DNA of 64,000 nt from Spirochaetia bacterium. GTDB lineage: Bacteria; Spirochaetota; Spirochaetia; SZUA-6; Bin103. Each line of letters starts with the position of its first letter. The stretch's first letter is position 1. The DNA is taken from NCBI GenBank assembly GCA_965208575.1, contig CBDBOV010000006.1, positions 160,001 to 224,000 of the forward strand, in the 5' to 3' direction. The translations under genes and the position numbers were made by a program. Below are positions 1-10,480 of this stretch, piece after piece. The notes under the pieces were generated by a model. That model was not told where the DNA came from, searched no databases, and saw only the letters and a list, made by a program, of their open reading frames with translations.

Positions 1-172
1 ACTTCTACGGCTACATGGCGCAGACCATTCCGCATGCCTCCTACATCCGCACCAAGTTCTACCGCGTCGACAGCGGCACCGAGAAGTGGCTCGACTACAA
101 GCGCATCGCCGCGATCATCAAGGCCACGGCTACAACGGCTGCATCTCCATCGTCTACGAGGGCGAGCACCAT
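1..172 (+). pseudogene. Sugar-phosphate isomerase/epimerase (TIM barrel), portion upstream of an insertion; truncated by window edge
   Basis: Reads ...KWLDYKRIAAIIKA then, after a 1-nt frameshift near 128, GYNGCISIVYEGEHH, a typical xylose-isomerase-like C-terminal motif; stops abruptly at the element terminus at 173. Confidence 0.7.
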
Positions 173-282
173 GGGTGCGACCGCCAGAAGCGGCAGATGT
201 CGCACGGCCGGAATCGACGACGGCTTGCAGGAGCGCACGTCGGGCGGCCCGACCCAAACGCGGCCACGCAGAGGAGGTCGCG

Positions 283-2808
283 CTACCTCCCCGGCTCCGC
301 GGCCGGCGCCGGGCCGTGGCATATGCGGTGGTGGGCAAAGCACGACAAAACGAGGTTCTCCGGCTCCGGGCCACCCCCCTCGGCAACCGGCAGCACGTGG
401 TGGATCTGTAGCAGGTGGGAGGAATTGCAGCGGCGCCCGGTGAGCGGATCCCGAAAGCGGCAGCGTCCCCCGTCGCGCAGCCAGACGTGACGCCGGACCG
501 CCGCCGGAATGGGGCGCCGCACCGGCGACCGGCGTGGGCCGCGCAGAGCATCGCGGCTGAACTGCGGCGATGCTCGCCCCGGCGCACCGCCGGCTCCACG
601 TGCAGGCGACACGCCGCATGCCAACTCCGGCGGCGGAGGAGAGGCCGGTGAGAGCGGAGCGGTGACGGTGCCGTCGGCTGGGCCACCGCCGGCGAACATC
701 GGCGCCGGAGGAGTGGCTGGTGAGAGCGGAGCGGCGCCAGTGCCGTCGGCTGGGCGACCGCCGGCGAACATCGGCGGCGAAGGAGAGGCGGGTGAGAGCG
801 GAGCGGTGACGGTGCCGTCGGCTGGGCCGCCCGTGGCGAACTTCGGCGCCGGAGTAGCGCTCGGCGGGACCGGGGCGGCGGCGGTGCCACCCGTTGCGCC
901 GCCACTGGTGAACTGCGGCGCCGCAGGCGCTTCCGGCGAGGCCGATGGCCCGACCGCGCGGGCGTCGCCCGCCGGCGCAGCGGGCACGTGGGCACCGGCG
1001 TTCTGACCCTCCGGCGCCGCAGGAGGGTCGGGCGTGACCGAAGCGGCGACACCTGCGCGGGTGCCGGGTGCCAATGGACCGGTTGTCTGCGCAGCCGGTG
1101 CGACGCTGCGCACCGGTGCTGCGCCAGGCGACGTTGCGGCGTCGGACTGCATCCGGGCGGCGGCGGTCTCTCCCTGCGGCGCCGGAGTATCGTCGCTCCC
1201 ACGCCCAGCCGAAGCGGCCGCCGGAGCGTCGCCTGTCGTGGTCCGCTCCGGCCGCGACGGCGCTGCCGTGCTGCCCGCGCGCTTCCGCCGGCGCCCGCCG
1301 CCGCCGGGGTCGTGCCGCGCCAGCGCCTCGCGCACCAGGCGCGCCACCAAGTCACCCCAAGACATGCGCGGGTCCACGTGCGACAGCAGGTTCTTCAGTT
1401 GGCGCAGTCCCTGCTCGCACTCCTGGTCGATGCTCACCTTCAAGGTGAAGCGGTCGGGCGCCACGGCGCGCAGCGTGTCGCGCGGCGGCACCACCTCGGG
1501 GGCGGCGTCCGCCAGCAGACCGGCGACCTGGCGGGTGGTCATGCCGGCGGCCTGCTCGATCAACTCGCGTTGGCGCCGCGGGTGCAGCAGCGGGGCGGCG
1601 GACATCGGCCCGGCAGACCGTTGCGTCATCGGATCACCGCGGGACGGCTCCGGTGCGAGCGCCGCGGTGGGCCGCGGCGCCGATGGGGCCACGACCGGCA
1701 ACGGTACCGGCGCTGCGCAACTCGCCGGCGGCCGAAGCGGGGCAGCAGGGAGCTGGTCCGAGGAAGGTGCGGCAGGACCGGGAGCGCGCGGGGGTGCGGG
1801 AGAGTGCGAGGCGGCACCGCCCGACTCCAGCCGCGCCGGCAGCGCATCGGCAGGCCCGGCGCCGCGGTGCTGCGCGGCGGCGTGGCTCGCGCCTGGCACT
1901 ACCGGCGCGTCTGCCGGCCCGTCGCACGCAAGTCCGGTGCGCAGCGCATGCCCCGCCGCCGCCGGCGGTGGCGCGTACACGGTGGCGGTATTCGGGTTCC
2001 ACCTGTCCGGGACACCCACCGGCGTCGAAGTCGGAGCGGCGCCCGAGGTGGCGACGCCCGAGTCCGATCGGCCCACCGGCTGCGAACCCGCCGCTCCCGG
2101 ACGGGCATCGACTGCCGCCGATTCGTCGGAACGTCGTCTGCCGCGGTCGCTCCCGGTATGCCGGTTTTCACGCTCTCGGAGGTCAGGCGGCGACTGCGCC
2201 GCCGATTCGACGGACGATCGGGTGCCGCGGTCGCTTCCGGTGTGCCGGTCTGCGCGGCCTTCGGTGTCACGGTGCCACCGCGCCTCCTGGTCGACGGCGG
2301 CCACGCCGTGCGCGGCGGATGCAGTCATCGCCGCGGCAGTGGCCACCCCCGCTCGCGCTCGGCACGGATCGGCTTCCCGGTCACCCGCTGCACCTGGCGA
2401 CGCAGGCAGCCCAGGCAGGTCGTGGCAGCACTCCTGACCGGCGTTCGGGCTCGCTCTCCGGGATTGGCGCTCGGCGGCGGCAAAGGCGGTCTCCAACTGC
2501 GCCGCCGCGGTCAGCGTCAGCTCGCCGCTGTGCAGCTTGGCCCGCACCCAGCCATGGCGCCGGCACAGCCGCATGGTCTGGATGCGGCGCTGCGCGGCGG
2601 CATCGGTGAAGCGCAACTCCCGCACCGCGTAGTCGAACAGGCTCGAGAACCCGCGCCGCGGCGCCAGGCCGCGACGGTCGATTTCGTCGAGGTGGTCCAG
2701 AATGTGCACTTCGAGGCCCCGCTGATTGGCCGCGAGGCGCCTGGTCTGGTCGAGGAGCTGCTGATCGCCGAGCGTGCTGAAGGGTCGTGTGCCGGTTCCG
2801 CTTGTCAT
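283..2808 (-). CDS. HNH endonuclease with DUF222-like N-terminal region and long Pro/Ala linkers (841 aa)
   Basis: N-term LDHLDEIDRRGLAPRRGFSSLFDYAVREL; C-term RPIPAAVRRHVWLRDGGRC..RC..LQIHH..P..EGG..ENL..C..HH; TATACT 6 nt before ATG. Confidence 0.85.
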   Translation of the reverse strand: MTSGTGTRPFSTLGDQQLLDQTRRLAANQRGLEVHILDHLDEIDRRGLAPRRGFSSLFDYAVRELRFTDAAAQRRIQTMRLCRRHGWVRAKLHSGELTLTAAAQLETAFAAAERQSRRASPNAGQECCHDLPGLPASPGAAGDREADPCRARAGVATAAAMTASAAHGVAAVDQEARWHRDTEGRADRHTGSDRGTRSSVESAAQSPPDLRERENRHTGSDRGRRRSDESAAVDARPGAAGSQPVGRSDSGVATSGAAPTSTPVGVPDRWNPNTATVYAPPPAAAGHALRTGLACDGPADAPVVPGASHAAAQHRGAGPADALPARLESGGAASHSPAPPRAPGPAAPSSDQLPAAPLRPPASCAAPVPLPVVAPSAPRPTAALAPEPSRGDPMTQRSAGPMSAAPLLHPRRQRELIEQAAGMTTRQVAGLLADAAPEVVPPRDTLRAVAPDRFTLKVSIDQECEQGLRQLKNLLSHVDPRMSWGDLVARLVREALARHDPGGGGRRRKRAGSTAAPSRPERTTTGDAPAAASAGRGSDDTPAPQGETAAARMQSDAATSPGAAPVRSVAPAAQTTGPLAPGTRAGVAASVTPDPPAAPEGQNAGAHVPAAPAGDARAVGPSASPEAPAAPQFTSGGATGGTAAAPVPPSATPAPKFATGGPADGTVTAPLSPASPSPPMFAGGRPADGTGAAPLSPATPPAPMFAGGGPADGTVTAPLSPASPPPPELACGVSPARGAGGAPGRASPQFSRDALRGPRRSPVRRPIPAAVRRHVWLRDGGRCRFRDPLTGRRCNSSHLLQIHHVLPVAEGGGPEPENLVLSCFAHHRICHGPAPAAEPGR
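629..852. repeat. 72-bp (24-aa) coding tandem repeat x3 in the HNH gene linker
   Basis: GGTGAGAGCGG recurs at 647, 719, 791; unit ~PAPMFAGGGPADGTVTAPLSPASP. Confidence 0.85.
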
Positions 2809-3231
2809 ACGGTAAGTATACTACTGACCTGTAGATAGCCCGTTTCTTCGGGTCTCAGACCCGGTGCCGGCAGCGCCTGTGGGGCGCGAAATGGCGCCTC
2901 CGGGGGCACGCGCTCGGGCACTTGGCGGTTGCAGGCCATTGTCGGGCTTCCAGGCGCGCCAGGGGCCTTCAGCGGCAGCGAAAACTGCGTCAACCCCTGC
3001 GGCCGATTTTGTGCAGGATTTTCGGCGCAGGCGGCTTGCCGAGCACCGCGGCAGGCAGGAACCACGCCGCCGCCTCGGGACTGTCCCACCGGTACGTGGG
3101 CACGCAAGGACACCGGCGCGCGGCAGCCCACTCGATCCGCAATCTGTTGCCGTGTCGCCCGCGTGCAATGCTGGGAGATCGGCGCGTGCTGATTCTGTCA
3201 ACCGCCATTGCCGCCTTCCGCGTTCGCACCC

Positions 3232-3350
3232 AGCACCATGACCGCGTCGAGCTGGTCCGTCGTGCCGCGGCTTACCTCCGAGACAGCTTGGCGGGCTTCC
3301 GACCGCCCGGCCATGCGGTCGCGCCCGCGGGCCGGCGGCACGCAGCCTGA
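3232..3350 (+). pseudogene. Displaced 3' end of the interrupted isomerase gene
   Basis: HHDRVELVRRAAAYLRDSLAGFRPPGHAVAPAGRRHAA* joins in frame to ...IVYEGE once one target duplication is removed. Confidence 0.75.
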
Positions 3351-3394
3351 GTGCGCTCATTGACATGGTGACGGGCGCGTGGCAGATTCGAGCG

Positions 3395-4270
3395 ATGCCT
3401 GCGACCGTAATCGACCAAGCGCACGCCGAAGGGTATCGCAACGACGGCTACGTGCTGCTGCGGGACGTGTTGGAAGACGCGGCCCTGCAGCCGGTGCACG
3501 ACGCCATCAAGGCCGAGGTGGACCAGCTCGCCGACCGGTTCCACCGGGAGGGCAAGGTCAGCTCGCGCTATGCGGACGAGCCGTTCAACCGGCGCCTGGT
3601 GCTGCTGTGCGAGGAAGCCGGGGAGCAGGTGAAGATATGGGAGCTGCGAACGCGGGCAGCGGTCACGCCGGCGCTGTACGAATTCGTACGCCATCCCGCG
3701 CTGCTGGACCTGATGACCGCGCTCCTGGGGCCGGAAGTCGCCTGGACGGGAAGCTTCGCGGTGCGCCTGAAGCTGCCCGAAACCGAGGAGACCGCGTTCC
3801 CCTGGCACCAGGATACCCAGTATTACGGCAACCCGACCCGGCACCTGCACGTGATCTCGGTGTGGATTCCGCTGGTCGACGTGGACGAGCGCAACGGCTG
3901 CATGCACCTGCTGGCCGGCAGCCACCAATGGGGTCTGCTCGGCGGCGCGCGGGACGCCCAGCGTGTCGTGCGCATGTTCGAGGACGTGGAACAGCGCGCC
4001 AAGCCGGTCGTGCTGCCGATGCGGCGCGGCGACCTGCTGGCGTTCAGCAACCTCACCTGCCACGCCAGCATGCTGAACACCACCAACGAGGTGCGCTGGA
4101 GCGTCGACCTCCGCTATATCGTTCCCGAGGCCGCCGTCGCGCGCAGCGACGACGAGCGGCACGGCTACGCCACCATCTACGATCACTACCGCATGCGCCC
4201 GATCACCGTGGCCAGCCGCGACCCCGACCAGGTAGTACCCTGGGAGCAGATCCGCAACCTCGTCAGTTAA
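3395..4270 (+). CDS. Phytanoyl-CoA dioxygenase (PhyH) family Fe(II)/2OG dioxygenase
   Basis: PWHQD motif, VWIPLVDVDERNGC, GSH, distal CHASMLN..RWSVDLRY; start may be 3365. Confidence 0.9.
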   Translation: MPATVIDQAHAEGYRNDGYVLLRDVLEDAALQPVHDAIKAEVDQLADRFHREGKVSSRYADEPFNRRLVLLCEEAGEQVKIWELRTRAAVTPALYEFVRHPALLDLMTALLGPEVAWTGSFAVRLKLPETEETAFPWHQDTQYYGNPTRHLHVISVWIPLVDVDERNGCMHLLAGSHQWGLLGGARDAQRVVRMFEDVEQRAKPVVLPMRRGDLLAFSNLTCHASMLNTTNEVRWSVDLRYIVPEAAVARSDDERHGYATIYDHYRMRPITVASRDPDQVVPWEQIRNLVS

Positions 4271-4291: not shown

Positions 4292-5356
4292 TCAGGCGCT
4301 GCTACCCTCATTCTTCGTGACCGCCCGCCAACGGGCACCCGGCCCGCGACCGCGGCACGTGACATCGCCGGTCTTTTTCAGGTCGGCCAGAAGCCTGCGG
4401 ATCCAGTCGCGTCCGACACCGGGACATTCGCGTTCCAGGTCGCTCAGGCGGAATTCGCCCGGCTGAGCGCGTATCGCGGCGAGCACGAGCGCCGACTTGC
4501 CGCCACGCGCGGTTTTGACCTGCTGCACGCGCTCTTCCAACTCGACGTAACCGCGGCGAATGACCGCAAACAGGAAGTTGAACCAGGGAGTCAGTTCGTG
4601 CTTGCCGTCGTGCCAGCGCTGCGAACTGCGGTAGAGAGATTCGTAGTACGCTTCCCGCGATTCCTCGATCAGGCGTTCGAGGCTGAGGTAGCGGCCCACC
4701 TCGTAGCCGTGCTGCCTGAGCGCAAGCAGGGTGAGCAGCCGCGACACGCGCCCGTTGCCGTCCCGAAACGGGTGGATGCAGAGGAAGTCCAGGACCAGCG
4801 CGGCAATGGCGATCAGCGGCAGGATGTTTTCCTGGTCGAGCGCGAATCGGTACCGCTCGCAGAGTTCCTCGACCGCTGCTGGCGTTTCCGCCGCCGCCAC
4901 GCACCGGAACCGGACCACCGGTGCCTGCCCGGGGCGCAGTTCGACGATGTCGTTGTCGACGCGCTTGAACCGCCCGGCGTCGCCGCTCGCCGACTGGCAC
5001 AGAGCATGCAGATGCAGCAGCGTATCCGGTGTCACGCCGAGAGAAGCTGTGCCGGCGTGAATCTGGTCCATTGCGCGACGGTAGCCGTGGACCTCCTTTT
5101 CGGGCCGGTCGCGAGGAGTAGCCCTGCCGAGCACGAGCGCGTGCAGGCGGTCGTGAGCGACCGTCACACCTTCGATCCGATTGGACGACTCCACGCTCTG
5201 AATCGTGGCGGAGTCTCGGAGCGCCTTGAGAACCTGCGGCGACTGGCGGGAATACAGCTCCTGCTTGCCCTTGTACTCGGCGATGTCGGTGAGCAGCCAC
5301 GTCGTGCCCATCGGCATCTCGTAGTCGCGCAATCGGTTGTCCCGGAACGAATTCAT
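4292..5356 (-). CDS. Fic family protein with C-terminal HTH
   Basis: Canonical HPFRDGNGRVSR motif; SSNRIEG inhibitory motif. Confidence 0.92.
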   Translation of the reverse strand: MNSFRDNRLRDYEMPMGTTWLLTDIAEYKGKQELYSRQSPQVLKALRDSATIQSVESSNRIEGVTVAHDRLHALVLGRATPRDRPEKEVHGYRRAMDQIHAGTASLGVTPDTLLHLHALCQSASGDAGRFKRVDNDIVELRPGQAPVVRFRCVAAAETPAAVEELCERYRFALDQENILPLIAIAALVLDFLCIHPFRDGNGRVSRLLTLLALRQHGYEVGRYLSLERLIEESREAYYESLYRSSQRWHDGKHELTPWFNFLFAVIRRGYVELEERVQQVKTARGGKSALVLAAIRAQPGEFRLSDLERECPGVGRDWIRRLLADLKKTGDVTCRGRGPGARWRAVTKNEGSSA

Positions 5357-5430
5357 GATCGGCTCCGCACCCGGCAGGTCACCCGGCACCACCATATGAG
5401 GTTGCCGGGCGCCCGACAACCTCATTCCTG

Positions 5431-6133
5431 TCACGGCATGAACAGCCCGCCGCTGACGTGCAGCGACTGCCCGGTGACGTACTCGGCGGCATCCGAGGCG
5501 AAAAAGGCTACCGCGTGGGCGACGTCTTCCGGTTCTCCCCGGCGCTTGGCGAGGATCGGGATGCCGAGCCAGCGCAGGTCCTGCGCTTCGTCGATCCGGA
5601 TCGGCTCGCTGCGCTCCTCTTCCACGTCGCGGTACTTGCGTATCATGCAGGGCAGGATCGCGTTGGCCGTGACGTAGGGCGCGCCCTCATGGGCGATCCC
5701 CTTGGTCATGGCGATCAGGGCCGCCTTGGAGGCGGCGTAGGAAGGTGGCGCGCGCGTTGACGTTCATCACCCGGTCCCACTCCGCGCAGGGCGTGTCGAC
5801 GATCCTGTGCGCCTGGCCGGTGCCGCTGTTGCTCACCAGGATGTCCACCGCGCCGAACGCCTCCTCCGCCTCCCGCACCAGCTCCTCGCACTGCGCGACA
5901 TCCGCCACGTCCACCCGGATGGCAACCGAGCGCCTGCCCATGGCCTCGATCCTGGCGCAGATGTTGCGGGCTTCTTCCCCGCTCGTGTGGTAGTTGACCG
6001 CCACGTCGGCCCCGGCCCGCGCCAGTACCTGGCAGATGGTGGCGCCAATGCTTCGCCCACCGCCGGTAACCAATGCTACCCTGCCGGAAAGATCGATCGA
6101 CCCCGCCTCAAGCTCCTGCTTCCTGCCAGACAT
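5431..6133 (-). pseudogene. SDR (FabG-like) oxidoreductase with internal deletion/frameshift
   Basis: TGGGRSIG Rossmann motif and NVNARATF joined out of frame to PSYAASKAAL (YxxxK) at ~5740; the catalytic-Ser segment is missing. Confidence 0.8.
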
Positions 6134-9881: not shown

Positions 9882-10278
9882 ATGCAACCTCAGGGTTTGA
9901 TAGGAGAGGCCCTCGTAGGGTACAACACGCCGTTCGAAGAGTGGCCCGAAGAGGTCAAGAAGGCTTATACGTATGACCCGGAAGGAGCCGAGAAGCTCCT
10001 CGATGAGGCGGGATATCCACGCGGCGCGGACGGCATTCGATTGACGCCCACCATGACCGCTTTCGAGTTTGCCATTGATTACTTCGAACTCGTGGCCGGC
10101 TACTGGAAGGAAATCGGCGTTGACGTGGATGTGTCCATTCCGCCGGCGGGTGCTTACGGGGGCATGGTTCGTGAGGCGCAATACGGAGACATGGTCTCCT
10201 GGGCTGCTGCGGTCCAGTATCTTGCCCCGGTCGAGCCGATTGGCTACTACTACTCGGGGTCAAGCTGGAACCCCCCAC
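9882..10278 (+). pseudogene. Internal fragment of a family-5 ABC substrate-binding protein (cassette 0)
   Basis: GYNTPFEEWPEEVKKAYTYDPEGAEKLLDEAGYPRG nearly identical to 18321-20135; cut after WNPP by an IS end. Confidence 0.85.
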
Positions 10279-10480
10279 GGGTGCGAACGCCAAAAGCAGT
10301 AGCAAATCGTTGACCCCGGGGCCGAAAAAAGGTCTACCTACCCCACGACACCACTCCATGGGGAGGTAGACCATGAATACGGAAGGACTTATAGCAGCCG
10401 CCGGGGGGCTCGTCAAGGAGTTGCAAGGGCGCATCAACGGCGGCGGGATGGATCTCCAGGAGGCGGAAGCCAGGATCGGT
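10279..10480 (+). mobile_element. IS remnant (left end plus transposase-like N-terminus), possibly ISKra4/IS256-like
   Basis: Begins GGGTGCGAACGC, the same terminus as the 173-3231 element; GGAGG RBS then MNTEGLIAAAGGLVKELQGRINGGGMDLQEAEARI; family assignment is inference. Confidence 0.55.

Follow-up and report, generated by a model that had tools for sequence, protein, structure and literature searches.

Transposase-less derivatives of insertion sequences (ISs) that carry cargo genes are known, and for the IS200/IS605 elements so are nuclease-only forms (TnpB, IscB). Mobile insertion cassettes and transporter ISs are bounded by terminal inverted repeats (TIRs), hold passenger genes without a transposase gene, and are presumed to be mobilised in trans. 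The tnpB-only and iscB-only derivatives of IS200/IS605 retain only the nuclease gene and are moved by TnpA in trans, and homing endonuclease genes lodge in group I introns and inteins. The prokaryotic Mutator-like (p-MULT) elements, which include ISKra4, are described as having inverted repeats of 18-39 bp and target duplications of 8-9 bp, and in four ISKra4 elements additional genes are noted whose function is unknown (Guerillot et al. 2014, PMC3942029). Here we describe an element of 3059 bp at positions 173-3231 of a stretch of 64,000 nucleotides (hereafter the window; positions 160,001 to 224,000 of contig CBDBOV010000006.1) from a Spirochaetia bacterium (assembly GCA_965208575.1, hereafter G000; 6.5 Mb in 6 contigs, 67% G+C). 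The element has an ISKra4-type shell without a transposase, bears the footprint of that IS family, and has relatives in other genomes whose shells are of the ISL3 family; its single gene encodes an HNH nuclease. It is probably a non-autonomous IS derivative that is moved in trans by a DDE transposase, with a selfish nuclease gene having colonised IS shells several times.

In formal terms, the element comes closest to the class of transposase-less cassettes bounded by IS ends. The element shares with the mobile insertion cassettes its TIRs, target duplication, passenger gene, lack of a transposase and presumed mobilisation in trans, but here the passenger always belongs to one nuclease family, occurs in dozens of copies, is under selection and resides in the shells of two IS families. 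The closest functional parallel would be the tnpB- and iscB-only derivatives, in which a transposase-less shell likewise keeps the nuclease gene and outnumbers the autonomous form, although the protein departs from IscB in every respect tested: there is no RuvC domain and no omega or HEARO RNA, and the shell is of the DDE type rather than of the HUH type with hairpin ends. As in intron and intein homing endonuclease genes, a selfish nuclease gene occupies a selfish element that the host tolerates; here, however, the host element is an IS whose own enzyme is replaced by the nuclease, and homing is only proposed. The ISKra4 group (p-MULT 4), as far as it is covered in the source cited above, has TIRs of 24-28 nt that start with GGGTG and duplications of 8-9 bp, features found in our element too, which differs in lacking the transposase and in having an HNH nuclease as cargo. 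Finally, the DUF222-HNH proteins, including those of the mycobacterial 13E12 repeat family (REP13E12), have the same layout of a helical N-terminus, a middle domain and a C-terminal HNH domain and are encoded by multi-copy units of 1.2-1.6 kb, whereas none of the 12 members studied here matches DUF222. No link between ISKra4 and HNH genes was found in the literature searched, although the supplementary element tables of PMC3942029 may list cargo genes; the same searches gave nothing relevant for mobile insertion cassettes and HNH genes, and the titles and abstracts on DUF222-HNH proteins and REP13E12 describe no IS shell.

New is the same situation in DDE elements with classical inverted repeats, where one nuclease family sits in the shells of two unrelated IS families. 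In a family of high-GC Spirochaetia metagenome-assembled genomes (MAGs) this nuclease family is represented by dozens of copies per genome, and its domains are kept by selection. Should IS DNA, or donor or target sites, be the substrate of the nuclease, selfish elements would be interacting in a new way, and a first functional handle would be available on the very large and uncharacterised DUF222-HNH group. If it is mere cargo, the elements are still a clean and well-documented case of trans-mobilised cassettes.

The features of the element and its insertion site are as follows (window coordinates; dN/dS, ratio of nonsynonymous to synonymous substitution rates):

1-172, plus strand: upstream piece of the interrupted host gene; sugar-phosphate-isomerase-like is a name given only by the first-pass annotation
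165-172: left copy of the target-site duplication, AGCACCAT; the orthologous site of relatives has a single target copy, AGCACCCG
173-196, plus strand: TIR at the HNH-downstream end, GGGTGCGACCGCCAGAAGCGGCAG, 20/24 identical (by eye) to the left inverted repeat (IRL) of the resident ISKra4-like IS
197-282: non-coding 3' subterminal region, with ~90% conservation in 9 copies
283-2808, minus strand: gene for the 841-aa HNH protein, the only gene of the element
304-516, minus strand: C-terminal HNH nuclease domain, residues ~765-835 (dN/dS 0.19)
614-973, minus strand: 72-bp in-frame tandem repeats in the second low-complexity linker (linker dN/dS ~0.9)
1219-1536, minus strand: conserved middle helical domain, residues ~425-530 (dN/dS 0.46)
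2114-2281, minus strand: two 84-bp tandem repeats in the first low-complexity linker
2464-2796, minus strand: conserved N-terminal helical domain, residues ~5-115 (dN/dS 0.11)
2806-3030, minus strand: proximal upstream block, kept in 11/11 aligned copies, presumed promoter or leader
3031-3207: distal upstream region, found in the six complete copies
3208-3231, minus strand: TIR at the HNH-upstream end, GGGTGCGAACGCGGAAGGCGGCAA read inward
3232-3239: right copy of the target-site duplication, AGCACCAT
3232-3350, plus strand: downstream piece of the interrupted host gene, to its stop

The arms of the inverted repeat (172-195 and 3209-3232) are 24 nt long and 79% complementary (19/24), and the 8-bp direct repeat immediately outside the TIRs is perfect. 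Only the open reading frame (ORF) at 283-2808 has a match to a protein family, Pfam HNH at residues 793-827. Six other ORFs within the element were scanned with Pfam and had no match, no transposase domain was found in these or in the 841-aa ORF, and the 434-aa transposase of the resident IS (see below) had no tblastn match below E 0.15 in the HNH elements. The non-coding flanks of the HNH gene measure 110 bp downstream and 423 bp upstream. All of this agrees with the first-pass annotation, made from the letters alone, which had proposed a transposase-less TIR element with a perfect 8-bp target duplication and with about 110 and 420 bp of non-coding sequence on the two sides of the gene. In related copies the proximal upstream block has a TATACT or TATATT box 8-9 nt ahead of the HNH start codon, and a strict sigma-70 scan found no promoter. 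The TIR columns have a conservation of 0.93, compared with 0.88-0.90 in the adjoining non-coding columns; they do not stand above their neighbours and so add no evidence of selection on the repeats.

Orthologues of the interrupted gene were sought with a 43-aa piece, which found one per relative in 15 relatives (16/41 genomes including G000). In three of these (G007, G001 and G003) both flanks are contiguous around one copy of the target, reading GGCGAGCACCCGGACCGC, and the encoded protein runs ..IVYEGEHP/DRVEQ.. across the site. Excision of the element from G000 would yield ..EGEHH/DRVEL.., with a length unchanged with respect to the relatives. The intact orthologues thus join at EHP/DRV, the insertion point that had been predicted. 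The view of an interrupted host gene has to be qualified: the empty site and the equal length after excision stand, but the gene in G000 is only a remnant that keeps residues ~180-264 of 264 (the last ~85 codons), lacks the N-terminal ~180 codons that are present in the relatives, and has a frameshift near window position 125-135. Four runs were compared with the stretch, two of which (X5 and X6) are labelled sponge metagenomes. Contigs of runs X1 and X2 cross both junctions of the element, and a contig of X6, from another study, crosses the right junction.

To judge the duplication against chance, TIR-like 14-mers (≤3 mismatches) that lie 400-4500 bp apart were paired genome-wide. An 8/8 flanking duplication was found in only 12 of the 1492 pairs, and all 12 are ends of multi-copy elements that are known independently by homology: six IS copies, the window's element (e1), another member of its family (e10), three elements of a second HNH family and a 911-bp derivative of the latter. 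No chance pair reached 8/8.

The TIR motif leads to an autonomous partner in the same genome, an IS of 1438 bp with 10 copies that are 99.9-100% identical. Its 434-aa ORF aligns to positions 18-422 of the 422 positions of the NCBIfam ISKra4 transposase model with 198.8 bits, just below the curated cutoff of 205, and the next-best model, ISLre2, scores 79.7 bits. The IS ends read GGGTGCGAACGCCGAAAGCGGTAG and GGGTGCCAATGCCAAAAGCGGTAA, and direct repeats of 8 or 9 bp flank 10/10 copies (six exact 8-mers; four assigned by eye, being 9-mers or offset). By eye, each end of the window's element is identical to the IS left end at 20/24 positions. The earlier guess of an IS256/ISKra4-type transposase has therefore been borne out by an ISKra4-like IS whose TIRs match and whose duplications measure 8-9 bp. 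The window's element has IS-type TIRs with a duplication, a passenger gene, no transposase and an autonomous partner in the genome, as expected of a non-autonomous IS derivative, and from this anatomy we infer mobilisation in trans by a DDE transposase.

Three further forms of this IS were seen. The window itself contains a truncated copy at ~10278-10477 (200 bp), which consists of the left inverted repeat and the first 35 transposase codons and is 92.5% identical. Two internal-deletion derivatives of 570 bp, in which positions 1-303 are joined to 1171-1438 (G000:C4:140189-140758 and C5:154972-155541), are true forms of the type of miniature inverted-repeat transposable elements (MITEs); they lack an HNH gene. 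The window's element itself does not belong to the MITE class, which requires a few hundred non-coding base pairs, whereas it measures 3059 bp and holds a selected ORF of 841 aa. At G000:C4:511218-514101 two identical IS copies stand in direct tandem, with 8 bp (GAACTCAC) between them and flanking the pair, which looks like an IS dimer.

In total, G000 has ~26 HNH-bearing shells, in two families. The first (fam1) comprises 12 full-length members, including the window's element, in line with the earlier proposal of an element family: 11 or more other copies likewise combine these ends with an HNH gene. The fam1 ORFs are uninterrupted in 12/12 members and encode 804-1016 aa with the N-terminal motif and the HNH tail. 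Clear 8-bp duplications are also present at e10 (TCCGGCGT) and e6 (CTTCATCC), and three fam1 copies have lost the distal upstream end. A solo fam1 HNH-downstream end of ~107 bp, with an intact TIR and no adjoining HNH gene, lies at G000:C4:674489-674595. The second family (fam2) has ~14 copies in elements of 2.0-2.4 kb, with proteins 35-45% identical to that of the window. Allowing ≤5 mismatches in 21, both TIRs are recognised in 5/14 copies, one in 5/14 and none in 4/14; the duplication is 8/8 in three copies and 7/8 in one. An internal-deletion derivative of 911 bp (G000:C3:719590-720500) has lost all of the HNH gene but its C-terminal part and keeps both TIRs and an 8/8 duplication, GCCGCCGC. 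The fam2 ends are 88-96% identical to the IS left end, with IS positions 1-34 kept, and fam2 also retains IS positions 185-236 on the 3' side of the HNH gene, which places the HNH gene of this family antisense to the former transposase. In the window's element a weak match of 61 nt (E 0.005), between positions 2999-3059 in element coordinates and IS 1378-1438, hints at an antisense orientation as well.

The shell is different in a genome of a sister genus (G019). There, 17 matches to the ISKra4-type TIR represent IS copies or solo ends, and by eye none was found within 20 kb of an HNH gene. The HNH elements of G019 measure 1.4-1.8 kb, with copies up to 96.8% identical, and end in GGGTCTTCMGGRWTTCGTGTGG, a repeat that occurs 38 times in this genome versus 0 for the reversed-pattern control. 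The same repeat bounds an element of 1336 bp with a 409-aa ISL3-family transposase (311 bits versus a cutoff of 180). The HNH elements retain positions 1-27 and 1262-1336 of this ISL3 IS (27 + 75 bp), with the HNH gene in antisense orientation. Duplications are 8/8 in two of three ISL3 copies and 7/8 in three of six HNH elements. ISL3-type ends adjoin HNH genes in two more genomes (G022 and G017).

The relation between shells and nucleases was studied in a FastTree tree of the three conserved domains (314 columns; 70 of 72 sources, two lacking a domain), for which the supports are Shimodaira-Hasegawa-like values and which could be distorted by gene conversion between paralogues. Clades with ISKra4 shells (fam1, 1.0; fam2 and relatives, 0.947) and clades with ISL3 shells (that of G019, 0.988; a second one, 0.982) interleave: a node with support 0.998 unites fam2 with the second ISL3-shelled clade, to the exclusion of the first. 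It follows that there were three or more gains or swaps of shells. What persists is the HNH gene, and the IS shell around it can be exchanged. The two alternatives that had been offered earlier, an element family that uses an HNH nuclease as a homing or maintenance factor or an HNH gene nested in a MITE, are not exclusive.

Taken in order, the proposed course of events would be that an ISKra4-type (Mutator-like DDE) IS kept its TIRs, while an HNH gene, accompanied by an upstream region of its own, took the place of its transposase gene. A related autonomous IS would then have provided in trans the transposase that inserted the element into the host gene and created the 8-bp duplication. The product would be a protein of three domains (N-terminal helical, middle helical and C-terminal HNH) joined by drifting, low-complexity linkers, and this selfish nuclease might help its own gene to get into IS shells, persist in them or spread between them. 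Such a selfish role is the likeliest one for the nuclease.

Selection was estimated from codon alignments of the 12 fam1 ORFs (66 pairs). The median dN/dS is 0.11 for the N-terminal domain, 0.19 for HNH and 0.46 for the middle domain, compared with 0.79 and 0.90 for the two linkers. Purifying selection acts on the N-terminal and HNH domains, and the linkers drift. Since selection keeps the HNH protein intact in every copy, the protein works for the element and is not dead cargo. The purifying selection could also be expected of a defence or restriction-type nuclease that benefits the host and is carried by a mobile cassette, and weak PADLOC matches to generic endonuclease and type II restriction endonuclease models (E 0.0005-0.005) point in the same direction. 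These matches, however, span the HNH domain only and are far from convincing, the ~26 copies in one genome and the dozens in relatives speak against a beneficial cargo, and in the copies examined we noticed no conserved partner next to the HNH gene. We therefore give little credence to a host-beneficial cargo.

Returning to the nuclease as a selfish gene, 12 aligned members of its family have three conserved blocks with linkers of very unequal length between them, and a compact form of 453 aa exists in G010. Pfam HNH matches 11/12 members, and the His/Asn/His and Cys motifs are kept in 12/12 paralogues. An AlphaFold2 model of the compact orthologue has a mean predicted local distance difference test (pLDDT) score of 56.9 and is confident only for the all-helical N-terminal domain (residues 12-125) and the helical middle domain. 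Foldseek rows for ParB, SopB and Noc DNA-binding domains, with probabilities of 0.2-0.4, were too weak to be more than a lead. In a sequence profile search of the PDB only the HNH domain was matched, best by a group II intron maturase (E 2.6e-4). The first-pass annotation had called the protein DUF222-like. Direct matches to Pfam DUF222 were found in 0/12 members; four distant full-length homologues, however, gave one match above the DUF222 cutoff (27.8 versus 24.4 bits), two below it and one without a match. These homologues, 27-30% identical, come from MAGs of Oligoflexia, Bacteriovoracaceae, 'Deltaproteobacteria' and Actinomycetota. Through them the family can be placed as a probable divergent branch of the DUF222-HNH group. 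The phmmer cluster representatives number 16,941 at E≤0.001, 7,178 at E≤1e-10 and 874 at E≤1e-30, of which the weakest may match the HNH domain alone.

An identity with the RNA-guided IscB/HEARO system was considered and rejected, as there is neither a RuvC domain nor a HEARO or other Rfam RNA. The IscB architecture, a RuvC domain split by HNH together with a PLMP domain, is not seen: the NCBIfam IscB model scores 18.6 bits (cutoff 175), and its match is confined to the HNH stretch. An Rfam search of window positions 1-3600 at E≤1 gave no matches, HEARO included. In an alifold analysis the conserved 227-nt upstream block had z-scores of -2.8 in sense and -2.9 in antisense (40 column shuffles); the folding excess is equal on both strands and is thus no evidence for an RNA. 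Lacking RuvC, the HNH protein can be compared with TnpB and IscB in function at most.

Within the same family, 20 of the 23 genomes have HNH relatives, the maximum being 55 matches in one genome; the 17 genomes that represent the other seven families of the order have none. The ISKra4-like transposase was found in 17 of the 23. Two observations were made in these relatives. The HNH units of G010 (loci L080-L128) start with a near-consensus TTGACT-N17-TATACT, the box lying 6-7 nt before the ATG, a position that suggests a leaderless mRNA; many of these units have repeated flanks in common and continue into a (GGGACT)n run and a GGCCGCCAAGCGGCC hairpin. On contig C5 of G003, several HNH genes have short remnants of the transposase C-terminus (residues ~349-386) ~400 bp upstream, for example 5227312-5227413 near the HNH gene 5227785-5229185. 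Those that were checked lie on the opposite strand, and the remnants look like leftovers of a replaced transposase.

Several results weigh against a non-autonomous derivative moved in trans by the ISKra4-like IS. The transposase was unmatched in three genomes with HNH matches (G011, 33 matches; G017, 52; G015, 4), and G010 (53 HNH matches) has at best a distant transposase match, with 38% identity along part of the protein. In the main HNH subfamily of these two genomes, G010 and G011, whose copies are ~90% identical in units of 1.5-1.6 kb, the ends differ from the ISKra4 type (an imperfect inverted repeat of the GACATTCTCGGCAG type, with repeated flanks), and no partner transposase was found for them. 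In a Bacteriovoracaceae MAG the repeat unit consists of ~120 bp of upstream sequence and the HNH gene, with no TIR seen, which means that the HNH gene can multiply without an IS shell. At each end of the window's element, 4/24 TIR positions differ from the current IS, which may thus not be its cognate mobiliser. The IS copies are identical, whereas the fam1 copies have a synonymous divergence (dS) of ~0.10-0.18, so that the HNH elements are older and may be inactive now. A transposition event was not observed, and none of the 13 contig joints listed for the four runs is an empty-site joint across the element, contigs being prone to drop rare variants. Finally, the model of the compact protein had no Foldseek match in the PDB at E≤0.001.

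The dozens of intact, selected HNH genes in G011 and G017, where the transposase is unmatched, raise the question whether the HNH protein could itself be the recombinase of an autonomous element that needs no DDE transposase. The high identity of the G019 copies (up to 96.8%) and the presence of the HNH gene alone in the element would fit. Against this, TIRs and 8-bp footprint alike follow the resident DDE IS, and the ends turn ISL3-type where the shell is ISL3. Ends that follow the shell type are predicted by borrowing and not by a single HNH recombinase, and we know of no HNH protein that performs strand transfer. We consider an autonomous HNH element very improbable.

The very short IS remnants (25-75 bp) between which the HNH gene lies, in two unrelated IS families, suggest another route to the same anatomy, in which the nuclease cuts a resident IS and repair from an HNH copy replaces the transposase gene. 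The HNH elements would then not transpose, and would inherit the TIRs and the duplication of the prior IS. The antisense orientation in fam2 and in the G019 elements, the interleaving of shell types on the tree, the TIR-less multiplication in the Bacteriovoracaceae MAG and the transposase remnants next to HNH genes in G003 all agree with such a conversion. However, 10/10 identical IS copies in G000 are unconverted, and the homology arms would be just 25-75 bp long with 72-96% identity. Nor was any site found that is filled by the IS in one genome and by an HNH element in another; the one comparison made, for fam2, yielded only paralogous, non-collinear flank matches of 69-72% identity. Conversion without transposition appears unlikely. 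A tentative and wider possibility, which we regard as less probable than not, is that the HNH genes are hyperparasites of ISs, which repeatedly entered ISKra4 and ISL3 copies, replaced the transposase, and spread in trans or by conversion. If true, this would make them a bacterial counterpart of the intron homing endonuclease genes, and the counterpart of TnpB and IscB in the DDE world.

Two ORFs adjoin the window's element beyond the host gene remnant. By eye, that at 3365-4270 (plus strand) resembles a PhyH-type dioxygenase and that at 4292-5434 (minus strand) a Fic-domain protein, with the motif HPFRDGNGR.

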